The notes under the pieces were generated by a model that did no database searches, was not told the DNA's origin, and saw only the letters and a program-made list of their open reading frames with translations. A DNA stretch of 62,790 bases, counting the filler, from Globobulimina sp. (lineage: Eukaryota): assembly GCA_003354225.1 (NCBI GenBank). It is 29 parts of 29 records of this genome, joined end to end, with 100 filler letters (N's around TTAATTAATTAA, not from the genome) between each part and the next. Parts side by side here need not be neighbours in the genome. Positions count along the whole stretch, not along the records: positions 2,172 to 4,242 come from PIVH01009251.1; 28 more parts are not named here. One strand, given 5' to 3'. The number at the start of each line of letters is the position of its first letter. Position 1 is the stretch's first letter. The translations under genes and the position numbers were made by a program. This document shows, piece after piece, positions 1-34,616 of this stretch.

Positions 1-15
1 ATTTCCGAAAAGCAG

Positions 16-2071
16 ATGAAAATGTATCACGAAATGATGTATTTATTAATATTATGCGATGTAGATATTGGCAAGGAATCATTGGTAGAAGCCGAGGAAA
101 ACACAGCTACAAAATCCAGAATCTGTTCCGCCTTGGAATTGGCGTATAAATTATATATCCCTCACATATTTGTTGCGTTGACATTAAATAAACGTGGAAA
201 TGTTTTTGGTCGTGACGATGACTGTAAATTACATGATATATTGACCTCAGCATCGGACCACGAAAAGATCCAACATATTATCAATAAATTATGGCGTGGA
301 TCTATATTGGATGAGATAATCAAATGCGATGATCACACATTAAGTATTTTAAGTGCTGCGTTATATTTTTATCATTTAATACGAGGCAAACAGTCTTTAA
401 AACGCATTGAAAAAACGTCATCGCCAACATCACATATTGGCGCTGGTGATGCAATGGTAACTTATTATAAATTTTTGAATCACACAAAGAGATTTTCAAA
501 GAAATGGAATGAAAAATATTATGCAAATTTATTTTTATTAAATAGATTTTGGTCCAAACCATACATTGCAAAATTAAAATTAATTGAATTACATATTGAA
601 TATAAAACATGCCAGCAAACAAAAGGATTTCTGCAATTTGTATCTTATTTGCCTCAATTTTGCAATCTTTCTTGTTTGGATTTGATATCGCTTTCAAACT
701 CACACAACGTGGATCAGCACCATTGTTGTAAGTTATTTGCGGCATTAAACAAATTTTGCCAAAAGAATTACACGTTAAAACGCATTAAATTCGAAGGGTT
801 TGAAATCAGTAAAAAATCAAGTAAATTATTGGCTGAATGGCTCAAACAATGGAATGATAGCTTTGACGCAGTACACACGATACAGGCATTATCATTGGTA
901 AATGTCAAGTTTAATAACAGGGGCATTCAGTTACTATGTGGCGCAATGGAATACAATCAACAATTAATATTTCAAGATTTAGTATTGGATGGAAACGTAT
1001 TTGATATCCCCGGCGCTCATTTCATATGTTCAATGTTACAAAATAAACGGATATCAACTCATTTACAATTGTTACAGATGAAAAATCTAAAATATTTATT
1101 TTTCGATGACGGTGACTCTTTGTTAAAAGTGTATTTGTTGAGAAGTTGCATGAAACACAATTTTCGAGTTATATTAAGTGACCGTGACAGTGACACTGAG
1201 GATGTTATTCTGGCTGCAAACAATTATATAAATAAAAACACCATCGATTATATTAAATCATGCACAGACAACGAATCGACTGCAGTGGCAATTGCGCATA
1301 AACATGATTATGATTATGATACCAAGGAAGAAGACGAAGTACAAATTGAATCGTGTTTGCGATCATTAGCTCCCAACGAAAAAGTGTGGACATATCAAAT
1401 GGAAAAAATCGAGGATACCTGCAAGGCGACAACATGTGCCACTGAATTGCAATCAAATCCTCATTTTGAAGCCGATAAACATAGTAACACATCAAATTGG
1501 AAAATACCCAAACCCAATTTCTCTAAAAATGCAAAGAAATCCCGCAAGATTTGTTTTTTTAAGCCGCGAGAATCCAATGCTAAAAAATTTAAACACAAAC
1601 GAGAACACAGCCGTAGCCATAGCCATATGCATGAAATCCATTCCTTTGAAGAAACAGACGATTGTATTGTGTACAATTCACAGTATAAATATTTATTTAT
1701 ACAGTTAAAAACAATGAAAGATGTGAATATTGAAATAGATTTAAGTATGTTCGATGCATTAAATGTCAAATTTTGTTACATCAAATTGTATAATAATGAT
1801 TCTAGTTTGACACTGTCAAACTCGTCGCTATCAAAGGAAATTTATTTCAGAAATATGATCTGTATTCAAGGAGCCAAAGAGCTTCGTTTTACCACCCATA
1901 GCCGAACTCACCATCAAAAACGGACTCATGTGAGGTGTCCATACTCCATTCATACTTGCGCCGGATCGAAATCGCCCATGCCCGACGGAAAAAGGATCTA
2001 TTCCTCTATACAAATCGAGATTGGGGAAAAACATCTCCCAGACCTCGAAGTTGCCGATGTCAGGCTCCGGG
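16..2071 (+). CDS. LRR (RNI-like) repeat-containing protein, 3' truncated
   Basis: Long ORF with degenerate LRR units (NLSCLDLISL, TLKRIKFEGFEI, IQALSLVNVKFNNRGIQLLC, FQDLVLDGNVFDIPGAHFIC). It runs into the spacer. Confidence 0.5.
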
Positions 2072-2171: not shown

Positions 2172-4242
2172 TTTTCCTTTTTTTCTTCATTGTCATTTTC
2201 AACCATATCACTTGATTGTTTTACTATGGGCTGCAATTCAAGGTTGGTCTGACCTGTTGATGTTGGTTTGATGTCTTTCGTTCTATATACCTTTGGTTTA
2301 TTACTGCAATCCCAAATGGCATCGCCTCTACATTGATGATGAAATATCACTTTCACAATCCCTATTATCAGCCATTTCAGATGCGGTTGTTATTTCGTGC
2401 TGAATGAAATGAGTTGTTTTCATATTTTTCAAATCATAAGTCATAAATGAATCGTTTCCAGAACCATGGCTGATAATATGTACTATAACACCATTATATG
2501 CTGTATTTTCCAATTTGGCGGTATGGATATCAATAAAATCTATAATATCTCGTCTGGTGGCGTCCAATGTCTTTCCTTTACATGCAAATACATCGTAATT
2601 ATATACTCCTTCCCAAAGATCTAACAACTTATTAATTATACTCTGTACTCCTGGTAAAAATAATGATCTATTCTTAAATTGCGAGATTCCAATCAATAAA
2701 ACTAATGTTTTATTCACAACAAATGCTTTGTTATACCGCTTTCTATAAAGATAGAACACAATGCAAATTAAGCAACATGGAATAAGTAATAACGTAATTA
2801 GCCACAATAAGTTCCAATTAATAATGTCTTGCGAATAATCGCGTGGACGTATTGTTATTTCGATATCATCAGCAACTAACAGTTTCAAGTGTAAAGTTTT
2901 CAAAAGCTCGGGCATTGGTAACTGTTGGTTTTATTCTGATTACATCCGACACATTTACGACAAGAGTATCATCAATACGCAATTCAGCATTATAAAATGC
3001 AACGGTAAGAGGTGCAGAATAATCACTGATTATGTTTTGAAATTGGTCCGTTATAAAAAATGATAATTCCAAATATGCGTCAACAACATATTGCCGATTG
3101 TATTCAAAATAAACATAATATGGAGTTGTATGGTTAATCCATGAGGACTCATTAAATGATAATAACATTAAATGACTTTGGTCGACGTCATTGTGAGATT
3201 TATTTGTACATCGCACATGCAATTGAGAGATATATCGTTGATCATTGCTGTAATAATTTTGCAAAACGTCATAACAAACAAGGTAACAATTTCCAGCATC
3301 GTACATGAATGAGATAAATGATTCGTTGATAATGGCGTCTAAAAACACAAACACTCCTTCATTCATTTGCATTATGGCATATTTATAATTTTGAGAATCA
3401 AATATTGCAGAAAATGTAATATTATCCAGCATAATATTGGCGCCATTTGACTCAATAATTGCAGAATGAGGATTAATTGCAGCCCAATAATCCATTGGAC
3501 TCGATGCTGAAAATAGTTCATAATTCGAAACGTAACTTGTTTTTCCAAGCGATGCATAAAAACACTTGTTTTGATCCTCAAATATATTTTCAAGATTGTC
3601 TCTAAAACATGAGGTTATCGACGCTGAGTTCCCTGCTTCAACCGTAATAATAGTGGACGCGGCAAACGTGTTCCCACTAAAACAAATTGTGCGAAAGCTG
3701 TCAATATAAAATAATGCCTTGTGGTTTTTAAAAATGCTGTGTTCGATGATGTTGTTGTATACAATATACATTTTAACGCCGCCAATAATATGTATAACAC
3801 CCTTCGCTTGATATGGTACTGATGATATATTATATACACTGCCTGTATCGTTTCTGTCAATGGTGTTGTTGATGAATATAACATTAGATTGGAAAAAAGA
3901 ACTCTCATATGTTGAAGGCCAGGCTGGTGCAAATGTGATGATGCCGGCATTATCATCTGTTCTGAAATAACAATTTTGAACCAATATATCTGACCCAGTT
4001 AGAAGCAGTGGTGGAGTACGGGCCACCCAATGATCCACAGGTAACAGTAATAGCATTTCAAACATATACGATGAAAGAGTATGACACTGGCCAACATTAA
4101 TAAATTCACAATTAATTAGCTGTAACATTGAAATTTTTTCCATTGTTTGTACTGCTAAATATCCATATTGCAGGCTTGAATTAATCACGTAATCATTGCC
4201 AGAAAAAAACCTGGCTATACCACCGATAGCAACATCCAAGTT
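2172..4242 (-). pseudogene. Single-pass receptor with cytoplasmic caspase-like (peptidase C14) domain, two frameshifts, both ends truncated
   Basis: ORFs 2869-4239 (Asn/Ile-rich ectodomain), 2328-2915 (TM helix LLWLITLLLIPCCLICIVFYLY, then LVLLIGISQF...VIVHIISHGSG) and 2120-2356 (VKVIFHHQCRG) join across frameshifts near 2880 and 2357. The His-Gly and QCRG motifs match the caspase catalytic dyad. Confidence 0.75.
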
Positions 4243-4344: not shown

Positions 4345-5922
4345 ATCAAATCAACATTTTATTTACCACGTACACTCATAATAGGAGCCATTGTAACTAT
4401 CCGTAACGAATTAAAATCGTACAAACCGTCGATACAATTATGTGACAATGATTTATTAGCACTTTTGCCAGTATTTAGTGAATTGGATCATATCTATGAA
4501 TTGAATCTAAGTCACTGCAATATCTCATGCAACGGAGTATATTTATTATGCGAATTACTACGCAAAAATAAAAAGATTGAACTGATTGATTTACGAAATA
4601 ATAAAATATCTGATTTGGGAGCACAAGCTTTATCCGAAATGTTGCAAATCGAAGCAACAAAACTTAAAACATTAATATTACATTTTAATGAAATCACAGA
4701 ATGCGGCGCTTTTCATATTGCTCAGGGTCTAAAAATAAACACAGTCTTACAAGAATTAGACATTTCGCACAACAAATTAGGTTCTTATGGTGCTAAAATA
4801 ATAAGAGCTGCATTATTGGAAAGGTCCATGCATATGTTCAATACAAATAATTTAATGATTGAACATAAACAAACATTTAATCTCATAGATGATGATAAAA
4901 ATGCAGAAAATAGCAGTAACGCTGACAGCAACGCTTCATCTGACACTGACACTGATGATGAAAAATCCTGCTCAAAGATAGTATCATTGCAGTCACCGCA
5001 GTTGTTACGAAGGGAGAGATCTGCAAAGATTCGCAGTCCATACCGTCCGTCACCACAATTGTTGCAAAAATGGATATCGCCGCAACAGCTACAATATATG
5101 CAGTCGCAGTTAGGTATTTTTATCAAATTTGAGGGTAATTTTGTGAAAGAGGAAATATTTAATTCCATAACGCATGCATTGGGATTATTGTTGTCCATAA
5201 TTGCCAGTATTGTACTAATGAAAGTATCTCGTGATAATTATTCACTTTTGTGTCAAATTGCAAGTGGCATCTTTTGTTTTACATTGTTTTTTATGTATTT
5301 ATCATCGACGTTGTTTCATTCTTTTTTGCGTTGTACCTGCGCCCGAAATGTGTTTCGTGTCTTGGACTTTTCATCGATATTTTTATTGATTGCAGGGACA
5401 TATACACCGATATTATTGATTGGTTTTAATCATTCTCCATTTCATTCGTTAATATTATTTATTTGCATATGGTCTGTGGCTATTTTAGGTGTCGCGTATT
5501 CATCGTATGCTGATCCACATGATTCGAAATGGAAAAAATTAACATTTTTATATTTAGCAATGTCGTATGCTGCATTGATTTGTGCCAAACCATTTATTGA
5601 AACCTTTGATTATATGGCTTGGGTCTGGATCGCCGTCGGCGGCTTTTGGTATACTGCGGGTGTTTGGTTTATTGCCAATGACGAAACTGTGCCAATATTC
5701 CATACAATTTGGCATATTTGTGTCATACTTGGAAGTGCTTCACATTTTTTTTGTATTTTATGGTATATTGTACCTATGGACAATGTGCAAAGACCGATAC
5801 ATCAGCTCACATTACAACATATATTGGATAATTTATTTTTTGCTTTACCAATTTCAAAATTATTTACGTATTTTGATAGTGATATGATGACAATGGATCA
5901 TAATGTTGTGAATGAACTATAA
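4345..5922 (+). CDS. LRR repeats fused to hemolysin-III/PAQR 7-TM domain, 5' partial
   Basis: RNI-like LRRs (ELNLSHCNIS, LIDLRNNKISDLGA, LQELDISHNKLGSYGA) are followed in the same frame by PAQR motifs EEIFNSITH, SSTLFH, RVLDFSSIFLLIAGTYTP and FHTIWH. Confidence 0.85.
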   Translation: MKSTFYLPRTLIIGAIVTIRNELKSYKPSIQLCDNDLLALLPVFSELDHIYELNLSHCNISCNGVYLLCELLRKNKKIELIDLRNNKISDLGAQALSEMLQIEATKLKTLILHFNEITECGAFHIAQGLKINTVLQELDISHNKLGSYGAKIIRAALLERSMHMFNTNNLMIEHKQTFNLIDDDKNAENSSNADSNASSDTDTDDEKSCSKIVSLQSPQLLRRERSAKIRSPYRPSPQLLQKWISPQQLQYMQSQLGIFIKFEGNFVKEEIFNSITHALGLLLSIIASIVLMKVSRDNYSLLCQIASGIFCFTLFFMYLSSTLFHSFLRCTCARNVFRVLDFSSIFLLIAGTYTPILLIGFNHSPFHSLILFICIWSVAILGVAYSSYADPHDSKWKKLTFLYLAMSYAALICAKPFIETFDYMAWVWIAVGGFWYTAGVWFIANDETVPIFHTIWHICVILGSASHFFCILWYIVPMDNVQRPIHQLTLQHILDNLFFALPISKLFTYFDSDMMTMDHNVVNEL

Positions 5923-6513: not shown

Positions 6514-7602
6514 AAATTTTGATATTGCAATGATTAAAACAAGTGCTTTATCTACTTTATAAAGTTGTCTTTTTTGACATTTATTTAAACAAAACAGATA
6601 CAGACAATACCCCACAAAACAAATTATAACACTAGAAAGTACACTAATTATCCATAGAGCAATAAATTCATTATCCACTGTTGGTGACGGTGTAGGACTT
6701 ATGGTTGGTGATAATGTCGGGCTAATACTGGGTGACGAGCTTGGGCTCATACTTGGAGATAAACTCATTGCAGTTGGTGATGAGCTTGGTGATAATGTTG
6801 GTGCTGAGCTTGGGGTTGGAGACAAAGTTACAATTGTTGGGGTTTGTGTAGGTAATGACGTTGTCATTGTCGGTTCAATAGTGGGCCACGTGGGGTCTGT
6901 TATTGGTTCAATTGTTGGGTCTGACGTGGGTGCAGTTGTTAGATATGCACAGACTGTAAAATGTAGGTCAATTGCATCGATAACGCCAGCTGCTCTCATT
7001 TCGAATCCTGATAAATATGAATTGTTTATATATACGTCGCCAGTATCGTTTAATGACATGTTTGCTATGTTTGATATGTTCGCTACGCATTGATATGATA
7101 AACCGTTTTTGGTATGGAAATATAAAGCATGTACAAACTGTCCGTATATAACACGAAACCCTGAGATATGATCTCCGTTCTGCAAAACAAATGGCGTGCA
7201 TAAATCAACAGGATCTGAGCCGAAAACTACATGTTTATATTGCATGTCCGATGCGAATTGTAAATTTGCCACAGCATCATAATCTATATTCAATGTAGGC
7301 AGTTCTTTGCTAATCCCCCAGGAAATTGAATGAATTCTTCCCTGTTGTTTTGTAGTTGTGATCAAAGTGCCTCCTTCTCCACCAAAGAAACCAGTATGCA
7401 GCCACCAACTTGGAGGCCAATTGTAATTATACACACATTCTCCTGTAAATGTATACGTACATTTAGAAAACTACACAACTGTCCGTGAGAAATAGACGTA
7501 CTTACTTGATAATTGAGGTGAAAGCCATAGATCTGTTGCGATTGCGATTGCGATAATGACTCCAAATACAAGTAATGTGCTTATTTTTGCGAACGAAGAC
7601 AT
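6514..7602 (-). CDS. Jacalin-like lectin + Pro/Thr/Ser stalk + TM receptor, cytoplasmic domain starting like a caspase p20; 3' truncated
   Basis: Signal peptide from ATG 7602; a 63-nt GTAAGT..ACAG intron (7505-7443) removes an in-frame stop. Jacalin-type GFFGGEGG and FEMRAAGVIDAIDLHF motifs, SPT/PT repeats, a TM helix, then KVDKALVLIIAISKF. Confidence 0.7.
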
Positions 7603-32548: not shown

Positions 32549-34616
32549 ACTTATACCAATTGGTATTCATCAATCACTACCGACCATAAATATTGTGTAG
32601 AAATGACAGCGCATAAGAACTATGAATGGGAAACAAAGAACTGTTCTGATAGCAACACTTTTATCTGTAATTCATGCCACTATGATATAGCCGATAACTC
32701 CCAATCATACCATGTAAATCCAAATATATTAAGCTGGGATAATTCTCAATTATATTGTACCAATCATTGCAATTCTGACCTGGCATCAATACATAACGAA
32801 CGCGACCTGAATTATGCAAAATATCTATCAATCAATGGCCATAAATTAAATATAAATGAATATTCAAACAATGTATCAATTGGATTATTCAAAAATGAGT
32901 TATCAATTGAATGGGAATGGATAGATGGCTCAGATTTCAATTATGGGCATGATTATAGGCATCCGGATGGCAGACCATATCCATGGTCGGCACTATTGAC
33001 CAATACTTCTGATGCACAGTGTGTGAGAATGAAATCTTCTCAGAACTATGAATTCCATGATGGGAATTGTAGTGGCTCTGCGCAATCAAGATTTATGTGC
33101 CATTCATGCGATGCAACGCTGAATAAATATGTGGTTGTTAATATTGACAAATTACATGCCGATGGCAATGCCTTTTGTCAACGCGAATTGGGCACAGCTT
33201 TAGCATCCTTACACAGCACATCTGATCACAACGAAGCTAAATATTTATGCCAACTCAGTAGTAATAACAATGGAGATTGTCATATTGGATTAGCATTTTA
33301 TAATTCGTATCAATACGATGATGGGACAGGTTTTGATTTTGGTACTGAGCTCGCAGCATATCCATGGAGCTCGTATACGAGTGGTGATAATGTGGTGTTA
33401 TCTCAACTTGACGATTATTTATGGAAAGCTGTAGATTCGACGGCGAAACATAATTTTATTTGCAATTTGCCTTCGCAATTGTGTACAGTCAGTGATTGGA
33501 ATGTTTTTGGTGATTGGGATGCATTCGAGACAACAAATAATTGCAATCTGCAGCATAGTAACAATGGTGCCGCTGTGATGACGGATAAACAATTTATTAA
33601 TCATAATAATGAATTATTGATAGAATTAATTTATGCCATAACAGATATCAATTCCGCTTTTAGCTCAATTGCAGCCGGAATTATGTTATTTAATATGCAA
33701 TCAGTATGTGATTATTATTATATATCAATTACACCTCAAAATAATGGCAAACGTAGTAAATTATCGCTGGGAAAGGTTAATAATGGTATTTATGATATAT
33801 TATACATGAATGATACAATGCTGTTTAAAATTGGAGTCGATTATGTGTTAAGAGTACAGGTTATTGATGGAGATATATTTAAGATTTCTATCAATGATAA
33901 TTTAATGATTGAATTCAGTGATTTTAGCTCCACTGTTAATGGCGGTGTATTATCAGGTTATATTGGTATAATGAATAGAAATTTGGCTACAATTTTCAGA
34001 TCGTTGCATGTTTCTGGTGGTGAATGGATATACGATACAGTCCCATTAAGTACATGCCTTAAATCTGAATATATTACATTGTCGCCAACAAATGAGCCTA
34101 CAATCAATCCATCTTTACAACCTACATTTGTTCCCACAAATATTCCAACAAATATGCCAACAAATGTTCCCACATTTGAACCAACAAAATATCCAACCAC
34201 TGAACCATCATATTATCCAACAGCAATACCAAGCTTACAACCAACCAGTCGACCAACAGTCGATCCAATCGAATTAAAAAGTGGCAGTGTTGACGATGTG
34301 AGTTCAACCACAATCATTCCTGATATAAATAACAAAGATTTGGATGATATTGATGATGGCGCTTTATTTTTGAATATTATTTATGTAGCGGTTGCTGTAA
34401 TTTTTTGTTGTTTGTTGAGTATTTGTGTTGTTATGATATATGTTAATAAAAAGAAACAGAATGTGGCAAGATATAATGTGCAATATCCACAAAAAGACTT
34501 GGAATTAGAACAAACAAAACCTGATAGGATTAGTGTTAAAGTAACAAGAAAAAGAGAGTTAACTACATGCACAGATGATAGTATTGAAGGATTGTATGAC
34601 GCGGATGATTTGTTGG
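32549..34616 (+). CDS. Multi C-type lectin domain receptor with PT-repeat stalk and TM helix, partial
   Basis: Repeated CTLD motifs (LASIHN, IGL..WEWIDGS, FIC), a beta-rich domain, PTxxPT repeats and TM IIYVAVAVIFCCLLSICVVMIYV. Confidence 0.85.

Follow-up and report, generated by a model that had tools for sequence, protein, structure and literature searches.

Animal caspases, paracaspases and metacaspases are generally regarded as soluble proteases, which are brought to receptors via adaptors. The death receptor-FADD-caspase-8 complex (DISC) of animals comprises three proteins and relies on death-fold adaptors, and receptor protein kinases carry a variable ectodomain, one membrane helix and a cytoplasmic enzyme. 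We describe here a gene from Globobulimina sp. (assembly GCA_003354225.1, contig PIVH01009251.1), located at positions 2172-4242 of a 62,790-base stretch of DNA, hereafter called the window. Three consecutive open frames on the minus strand of this contig encode, between them, an ectodomain, a single membrane helix and a Peptidase_C14-type domain of which the first half is present. Judged by its sequence relatives, the contig belongs to a large foraminiferal family, consisting of hundreds of membrane-anchored caspase-type proteins. Unlike in the DISC, receptor and protease in this family are predicted to reside in one polypeptide, with no death-fold detected; ligand clustering and proximity activation at the membrane would presumably be shared with it. 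The layout is the same as in receptor kinases, as an analogy only, ligand-induced dimerisation being presumed for both. Receptor kinases phosphorylate, whereas the output of the present family would be irreversible proteolysis.

Caspase-like proteins of foraminifera have been reported before. Those of Reticulomyxa filosa are reported to branch with animal caspases and not with metacaspases (Klim et al., 2018, PMC5982838), and the Reticulomyxa protein was later used as outgroup for metazoan caspase trees (PMC11463336; PMC10565124). This branching is the same as in our structural ranking given below, and the Reticulomyxa proteins probably belong to the same family as those described here. The passages of PMC5982838 at hand concern the protease domain and its phylogeny only, with the word "transmembrane" occurring once, for mitochondrial potential, and "receptor" never; the available part of PMC11463336 also discusses the protease domain and phylogeny only, and does not contain "transmembrane". 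Foraminifera are not mentioned in PMC8195603. Searches of the literature for transmembrane, membrane-bound, membrane-anchored or membrane-tethered caspases or metacaspases gave no such protein by title or start of the abstract, and among the matches listed "receptor caspase" was used in the sense of caspase-11 or -4. For foraminifera or Reticulomyxa in combination with caspase, no receptor architecture was described among the matches listed, with supplements and the original foraminiferal genome paper lying outside the scope of the search. The foraminiferal protease family as such is known; what seems to be undescribed is the receptor architecture, along with its near-universal occurrence in the family and the extent to which the family has expanded.

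The analysed gene is carried by one complete contig of 2071 bases, bounded by N44-TTAATTAATTAA-N44 linkers as seen from the N runs and the sequence, and is therefore cut at both ends. It runs off the contig on both sides: the N-terminus is lost, and the sequence breaks off once the inter-subunit linker has begun, so that the p10-like half is missing as well. All gene parts are on the minus strand. The open frame at 2872-4242 encodes the C-terminal 457 residues of the ectodomain, 58% identical to residues 1054-1498 of a relative of 1912 residues (P0001). The middle frame (2331-2930) contains the transmembrane (TM) helix, a basic stretch, the first caspase strand and VIVHIISHG. The single helix was placed at 2745-2810 by translation and comparison within the family, with 22 hydrophobic residues (LLWLITLLLIPCCLICIVFYLY) followed by RKRYNK, and the first strand (VVNKTLVLLIGISQF) was found in the translation at 2676-2720. 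The first part of the p20-like domain, with the motif HIISHG, extends over 2359-2720; it is 62% identical to residues 1506-1678 of P0001 and stays below the Pfam cut-off. The third open frame (2172-2389) gives KVIFHHQCRG and then a low-complexity stretch into the contig end, and from the alignment with P0001 (residues 1682-1727, 41% identity) the region 2172-2356 was taken to complete the p20-like part and to lead into a variable inter-subunit linker. The predicted catalytic His codon is at 2466-2468, in VIVHIISHG, and the predicted catalytic Cys codon at 2330-2332, in KVIFHHQCRG, both assigned by translation together with the corresponding family column. In the tblastn comparison P0001 is collinear with the contig across all three frames, which shows that ectodomain, helix and protease belong to one gene. 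Against Pfam Peptidase_C14 (PF00656, clan CD, gathering threshold 21.4 bits) the 200-residue piece of the contig scored 13.9 bits (E 0.045, profile positions 3-94), which is below the cut-off; the fragment was placed in Peptidase_C14 via its 50-62% identity to relatives that pass the gathering score. In two sets of relatives, 13 of 18 and 28 of 37 proteins did so, with 30-59 bits.

When the 200-residue middle piece, comprising TM helix and protease, was used as query, 18 longer proteins were found at E <= 1e-3 among 730 candidates, the best of them with E 3e-63 and 61% identity over 88% of the query. A profile made from five members and searched against 1.84 billion representatives matched 316 clusters at E <= 1e-3, of which 179 remained when the threshold was tightened to E <= 1e-10 and 136 when it was set to E <= 1e-30; the best 150 of the 316 matches were listed. 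Exact-sequence look-up of 30 members assigned 20 to EukProt Bolivina argentea, 6 to Nonionella stella, 1 to NCBI and 3 to ENA. All 26 members with a species name are thus foraminiferal, from either Bolivina argentea or Nonionella stella. A second, word-based search gave 67 proteins (63 from EukProt, 1 from NCBI, 3 from ENA). One member of 898 residues, joining ectodomain, TM helix and C14 domain, is located on a 10.8-kb NCBI genomic contig.

The receptor architecture was evaluated on 160 proteins in hand, 157 of which match the family model of the cytoplasmic domain and 135 of which cover the start of this domain. A helix was scored when a 19-mer with a mean Kyte-Doolittle value of at least 1.8 was present within 70 residues upstream of the domain. 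By this measure 127 of the 135 members have a hydrophobic helix just upstream, and six of the eight without one begin with the domain or close to it and appear to have lost their N-terminus. In a smaller count the helix was present in 111 of 119 proteins, with a median of 10 residues from helix end to domain start and with 0-2718 residues before the helix. Intact members follow the order signal peptide, variable ectodomain composed of carbohydrate-binding or adhesion-type modules, one TM helix, approximately 10 residues, Peptidase_C14 domain, variable disordered linker, p10-like half. No caspase recruitment domain (CARD) or death effector domain (DED), which would represent a death-fold prodomain, was found in any Pfam scan of the window or the relatives, their place being taken by the ectodomain and TM helix. 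An earlier note on this DNA had proposed an ectodomain of more than 450 residues, one TM helix and a caspase-like protease in the same protein. This proposal is borne out by the collinearity with P0001 and by the 127 of 135 members with a helix, the ectodomain frame and the helix are as described there, and the motif strings it quoted are all present on the minus strand of the contig. The absence of any intact joined protein, named in the note as counter-evidence, was not what we observed, as the three parts occur together in a large number of predicted proteins, including the genomic one of 898 residues.

Several properties support an N-out, C-in orientation of the family, that is, a predicted type-I single-pass topology; crude as these hydropathy methods are, they all agree in direction. 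Modules of outer type are located N-terminal of the helix; Ldl_recept_a, Lectin_C, Notch LNR and leucine-rich repeats (LRR) were found by Pfam, and Jacalin and Kelch are from precomputed lists. Lys and Arg prevail on the C-terminal side of the helix in 76 proteins and on the N-terminal side in 24, with equal numbers in 21. There are 2.1 N-x-S/T sequons per 100 residues in the ectodomain and 1.1 in the cytoplasmic part, and a hydrophobic 10-mer within the first 30 residues was present in 84 of 153 proteins. Single-linkage clustering of the ectodomains of 119 members gave seven groups (81, 32, 2 and four singletons), with modules being shared, and for this reason we do not claim that the ectodomains are mutually unrelated. 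One relative, P0005 (1447 residues), consists of a short ectodomain, a helix and the caspase domain, followed by at least four hydrophobic helices, LRR and Notch LNR; this order would place the protease within a cytoplasmic loop of a protein that crosses the membrane several times.

The relative P0006 was modelled by AlphaFold2 from an alignment of 57 rows. The model has a predicted local distance difference test (pLDDT) score of 77, above 90 in the core, and a predicted template-modelling (pTM) score of 0.66. In the model, helix 73-101 passes almost straight into the first strand, and a disordered region at approximately 245-285 (pLDDT 45-64) lies between the p20-like and p10-like halves; across the family the inter-subunit linker has a median of 46 residues (range 28-130, n = 119). 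Pfam matches of the relatives span profile positions 3 to approximately 220 of 233 in order, with p20, linker and p10 in one chain. The top Foldseek matches of the P0006 model in PDB are all caspases, with E 8.9e-12 and a target-normalised TM-score of 0.75 for caspase-8 (4ps1_A). In a VIA structure search against 48,161 representatives, caspase entries gave Z 26.1, 25.2 and 25.0 (the best with 219 aligned residues and a root-mean-square deviation, rmsd, of 3.1), MALT1 22.1 and 19.6, CED-3 22.0, Dronc 20.5, the c-FLIP protease-like domain 19.9, three metacaspases 17.5-18.5 and a fourth (4af8_A) 13.7, GPI8 and legumain 15.9-16.5 and a SAVED-CHAT protein 14.3. The animal caspases (MEROPS C14A; caspase-8, caspase-9, Dronc, CED-3) hence have the same fold and are the best matches (Z 20.5-26.1, 198-223 aligned residues, rmsd 2.4-3.4); they share the p20-linker-p10 order, with the His in S-H-G and the Cys in C-R-G at aligned positions. 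They differ from the present family in origin, the latter being foraminiferal, in the sequence identity of just 11-19%, and in that the family has an ectodomain and TM helix and no CARD or DED. The paracaspase MALT1 and the metacaspases (MEROPS C14B) also have the same fold and dyad, but are soluble and score lower than caspases by 3-8 Z units. The Cys motif of the family is H-x-C-[R/Q]-G.

Comparison with PDB sequences pointed in the same direction. The family profile matched caspase-2, CED-3 and a circularly permuted caspase-2 with E 0.13-0.45, and the relative P0021 matched an ancestral effector caspase with E 6e-4, both catalytic residues being aligned; the family dyad aligns with the dyads of caspase-2 and of ancestral caspase-3/6/7. 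Paracaspase or metacaspase sequences were not among the PDB matches at E <= 1 for the profile or E <= 10 for P0021, which were to caspases only. A feature search of the atlas gave animal caspase clusters at 0.91, which we regard as a lead only. By the model, the cytoplasmic domain has a caspase fold nearer to animal caspases than to the paracaspase or metacaspases, a ranking made by structure scores and PDB sequence matches. The caspase fold claimed in the earlier note was recovered in both comparisons, most relatives passing Pfam Peptidase_C14 and the P0006 model being best matched by caspases.

The dyad is close to invariant: of the members aligned, 130 out of 133 retain the His and 127 out of 131 the Cys, within the motifs H-x-[I/L]-S-H-G and F-x-H-x-C-[R/Q]-G. 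From this conservation the family domain is apparently catalytically active. The residue before the catalytic Cys is G in 52 members, A in 32, S in 11, C in 10, T in 7 and V in 6, with Q as a minority. While the His/Cys dyad recognised in the earlier note is conserved, the likeness of QCRG on the contig to QACRG of caspases is partly coincidental: the Q of the window is not a family feature, and it is C-[R/Q]-G that is conserved.

Two membrane-anchored proteins with related protease folds were compared. The bacterial anti-sigma factor DdvA (PDB 8rot) is a single-pass protein with a clan-CD protease-fold domain and a sensor part across the membrane. It differs from the family in ectodomain and protease subfamily, and its CHAT domain reached only Z 9.6. 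PIGK/GPI8 of the glycosylphosphatidylinositol (GPI) transamidase (clan CD, C13) is eukaryotic and anchored by one helix, with Z 16.5. Its catalytic domain is lumenal and N-terminal of the helix, and it is one conserved housekeeping gene, whereas the family described here is expanded and receptor-like.

The ectodomain in the window matched no Pfam family and is of a type shared by 11 of 153 members. It contains 10 Cys and 11 N-x-S/T sequons. Its AlphaFold2 model (pLDDT 75, pTM 0.75) is a right-handed parallel beta-helix at residues 1 to approximately 370, followed by a membrane-proximal region, with the last 90 residues poorly modelled. The best structural match is the pneumococcal adhesin PfbA (Z 18.7, 240 aligned residues, rmsd 2.9), and an autotransporter passenger, PL6 alginate lyases and phage tailspikes gave Z 17-18.6. 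All 50 VIA matches listed have Z 14.6-18.7, and those whose titles were checked are beta-helix adhesins, polysaccharide lyases or hydrolases and tailspikes. The modelled ectodomain is accordingly of an adhesin or polysaccharide-binding type of fold, binding as such not being implied by the fold.

We assign a probability of about 55% to the following reading: the contig is a truncated and frame-disrupted paralogue of a foraminiferal type-I receptor-protease family, whose intact members act via ligand clustering. The intact members would be one-component receptor proteases. The receptors would gather into clusters on binding a multivalent ligand outside the cell, probably a glycan carried by prey, microbes, substrate or other cells, so that the juxtamembrane caspase domains meet and are activated by induced proximity as in initiator caspases, possibly accompanied by cleavage of the linker. 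Once active, the protease would cleave cytoplasmic substrates close to the membrane. Ligand-driven activation is what we infer for the family by analogy. As an alternative, the protein could be a constitutively active membrane-tethered protease, its ectodomain only positioning it, for example on reticulopodia, with ligand-independent local processing of cortical or cytoskeletal proteins or of its own tail. The beta-helix is as like bacterial adhesins as lyases, the protease begins approximately 10 residues past the helix, which fits a fixed cortical location, and Pfam scans of the relatives found no adaptor or regulatory domain in the cytoplasmic tail. On the other hand, the nearest structures, caspase-8, caspase-9 and Dronc, are zymogens activated by dimerisation, and the great size of the family, together with the variety of its lectin-type ectodomains, suits a role in recognition more than one in housekeeping. 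Constitutive activity is for us an unlikely explanation.

The copy in the window is interrupted twice. Each frame change on the contig corresponds to one extra base or, equivalently, to 3n+2 missing bases, and the alignment with P0001 puts the breaks near 2877 and 2357, the tblastn frame switch being at 2878/2876. Words of the contig are contained in six public runs from two studies, and four of these (X1, X2, X3 and X5) were compared; coverage has holes in parts of 3642-3851 in X1 and at 4202-4242 in all runs. X1 (organism A) contains 84% of the contig words, and its contigs are 100% identical to the window across both breaks; two contigs of the Logan assembly bridge them, record 1 covering 2172-2736 and record 2 covering 2712-2988, both without inserted bases. 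The copies in X2 and X5 (organism B) are 90-99% alike to the window, and the copy in X3, which is from the same sample as X1, is 95-99% alike. Relative to these near-identical copies the window lacks 20 bases at the first break (2877-2878) and two bases (TA) at the second (2356-2357). The 20 bases are inserted behind 2877 directly in an X2 contig, and the same letters are present in a loose end of X5 at 2878; TA is inserted behind 2356 in contigs of X2, X5 and X3. Both insertions are of length 3n+2 and each restores the frame. Read by hand in frame, the 20 bases give residues that align with a segment of P0001, P0003 and P0004 which is missing from the window. The other four indel events between the window and the close copies (+6, -3, -6 and 5+1) all keep the frame, and third codon positions account for 16 of the 30 listed substitutions of X2 (one-sided p 0.019), 14 further differences being outside this count.

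By these comparisons the copy in the window has truly lost bases at both breaks, as measured against close copies that appear to be under constraint. The two frameshifts noted earlier were hence correctly seen as splitting this copy, but they are deletions of 20 and 2 bases, not simple one-base slips. Since the close copies carry the missing bases and stay in frame, the copy in the window is most likely a recent pseudogene in a large family, as far as its sequence tells. Introns behind the frame switches were considered and rejected, a genomic copy without bases that are present in related copies being the opposite of an intron. One X3 contig of 537 bases (record 13) matches 2172-2347 and continues into unrelated sequence, which suggests another paralogue sharing only the linker-proximal part. 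The contig is a short one in a fragmented assembly, and there is no internal stop in the three frames over the homologous parts, the breaks aside. A functional copy, in which the breaks are sequencing or assembly errors or are read through by programmed frameshifting, could be proposed on these grounds. We find it improbable: gaps of 20 and 2 bases do not resemble homopolymer slips, the separate Logan assembly of X1 has both gaps in contigs bridging each, and at break 1 the window lacks residues of P0001, P0003 and P0004 that a simple frameshift could not restore.

It could also be that the caspase-fold domain is a non-catalytic scaffold, a c-FLIP-like pseudoprotease recruiting proteins below the membrane. 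The c-FLIP protease-like domain is among the structural matches, and the canonical caspase residues of the S1 pocket do not seem to be kept. Against this, His, Cys and the flanking Gly are near-invariant among members which are 30-50% identical, a pattern expected of an active enzyme, and we consider a scaffold very improbable. That the joined architecture is an artefact of chimeric transcript assemblies or animal contamination is hardly credible: for most members the predicted proteomes of two species are the only source, but the genomic contig 2172-4242 carries ectodomain, helix and protease contiguously, a second contig of the window has ectodomain, helix and first strand, the 898-residue member is genomic as well, the architecture is repeated throughout the members counted above (127 of 135), and the identity to solved animal caspases is only 11-19%.

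Several points weigh against the receptor-protease reading given above. Firstly, activation by clustering is argued entirely from likeness to initiator caspases and receptor kinases. The AlphaFold2 alignment of the ectodomain had 12 rows only. In two of the 135 members, P0027 and P0086, the domain lies well inside the protein with no helix upstream; these two could represent soluble forms or faults of the assembly. Every named member is from the EukProt predicted proteomes of two species, which we take to be transcriptome-derived. Secondly, caspase-like Asp specificity is unlikely from the sequence columns, to which the S1 comparison is confined. In caspases the Asp-specific S1 pocket is formed by an Arg in the first loop, the Gln preceding the catalytic Cys and a further Arg from p10. 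When the family is aligned with the ancestral effector caspase, it has a gap of two residues at Thr-Arg of the first loop, where the S1 Arg is located, and the Gln is not conserved across the family; an Arg in G-R-x-x-S-D is conserved in 121 of 134 members. Thirdly, X1 may be the assembly's own source, in which case its agreement excludes an artefact of the assembler and not an error shared by the reads. No run with words of the contig is listed as RNA with certainty, the RNA label of X2 and X5 being only a guess, hence the intact copy is known from sequence alone. The window's copy itself cannot work as it is, with two frame breaks and a contig end before the p10-like half.

A second member of the family is located at 6514-7470 (minus strand). 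In its translation a jacalin-like ectodomain, recognised by a weak match, is followed by a long stalk rich in Ser, Pro and Thr, then by a TM helix and by the first caspase strand (VDKALVLIIAISKF), after which the contig ends. Against Pfam Jacalin it gave E 0.0054 and 17.6 bits, below the 22-bit cut-off; in tblastn it was matched by P0003 (E 2.8e-4) and P0007 (E 0.003), both alignments ending at 6514. At least two paralogues with different ectodomains are thus present within 62 kb of small contigs. At 32549-34615 (plus strand) an open frame of 689 residues spans the contig from end to end and contains two matches to C-type lectin (E 3e-17) as well as PT repeats. It was matched in tblastn by the ectodomains of P0011 (E 2e-5) and P0017 (E 2e-4), and may be the outer part of a third receptor-caspase.

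The window as a whole is composed of 29 contigs, sorted by length from 2071 down to 2067 bases as told from the positions of the N runs, with the six-frame stop linkers at the joints evenly spaced. It has 26-39% guanine and cytosine and long open frames under the standard code. Pfam matches on the other contigs are to ordinary eukaryotic domains (PIP5K, mitochondrial carrier, SEP, SAM, PH, FMO and others); adjoining contigs are therefore not genomic neighbours, and neighbourhood across a linker is meaningless. A frame of 525 residues at 4345-5919 (plus strand) fuses RNI-type leucine-rich repeats (LRR_6, E 3e-11) with a HlyIII/PAQR seven-helix domain (E 2e-31), which is an unusual fusion. At 1-2070 (plus strand) there is a frame of 690 residues, open to the contig start and leucine-rich-repeat-like by eye, for which no Pfam match was found at E <= 1e-3.

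The copy at 2172-4242 is only a broken fragment, and its interest is in the family behind it. A receptor and a caspase-type protease in one membrane protein would represent a new signalling layout, irreversible, proteolytic and one-component. The family lends itself naturally to tests of the induced-proximity model of how caspases are activated. It adds to the evidence of caspase-type enzymes outside animals (PMC5982838). Foraminiferal pattern-recognition pathways are described as uninvestigated in a review, with no Toll-like receptors found at a cursory look (PMC9533005). Tentatively, and as a possibility more than an expectation, the hundreds of receptor-caspases could make up a one-component surface recognition repertoire, their lectin-type and beta-helix ectodomains reading glycans of prey, microbes or other foraminiferal cells and the fused protease responding with local proteolysis, in pseudopod retraction, fusion rejection, phagocytic commitment or cell death. 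If this were true, death-receptor signalling would have evolved in one protein outside animals, and caspase-type (C14A-like) proteases would not be an animal invention. The family may be relevant to the recognition of food, microbes and one another by foraminifera.

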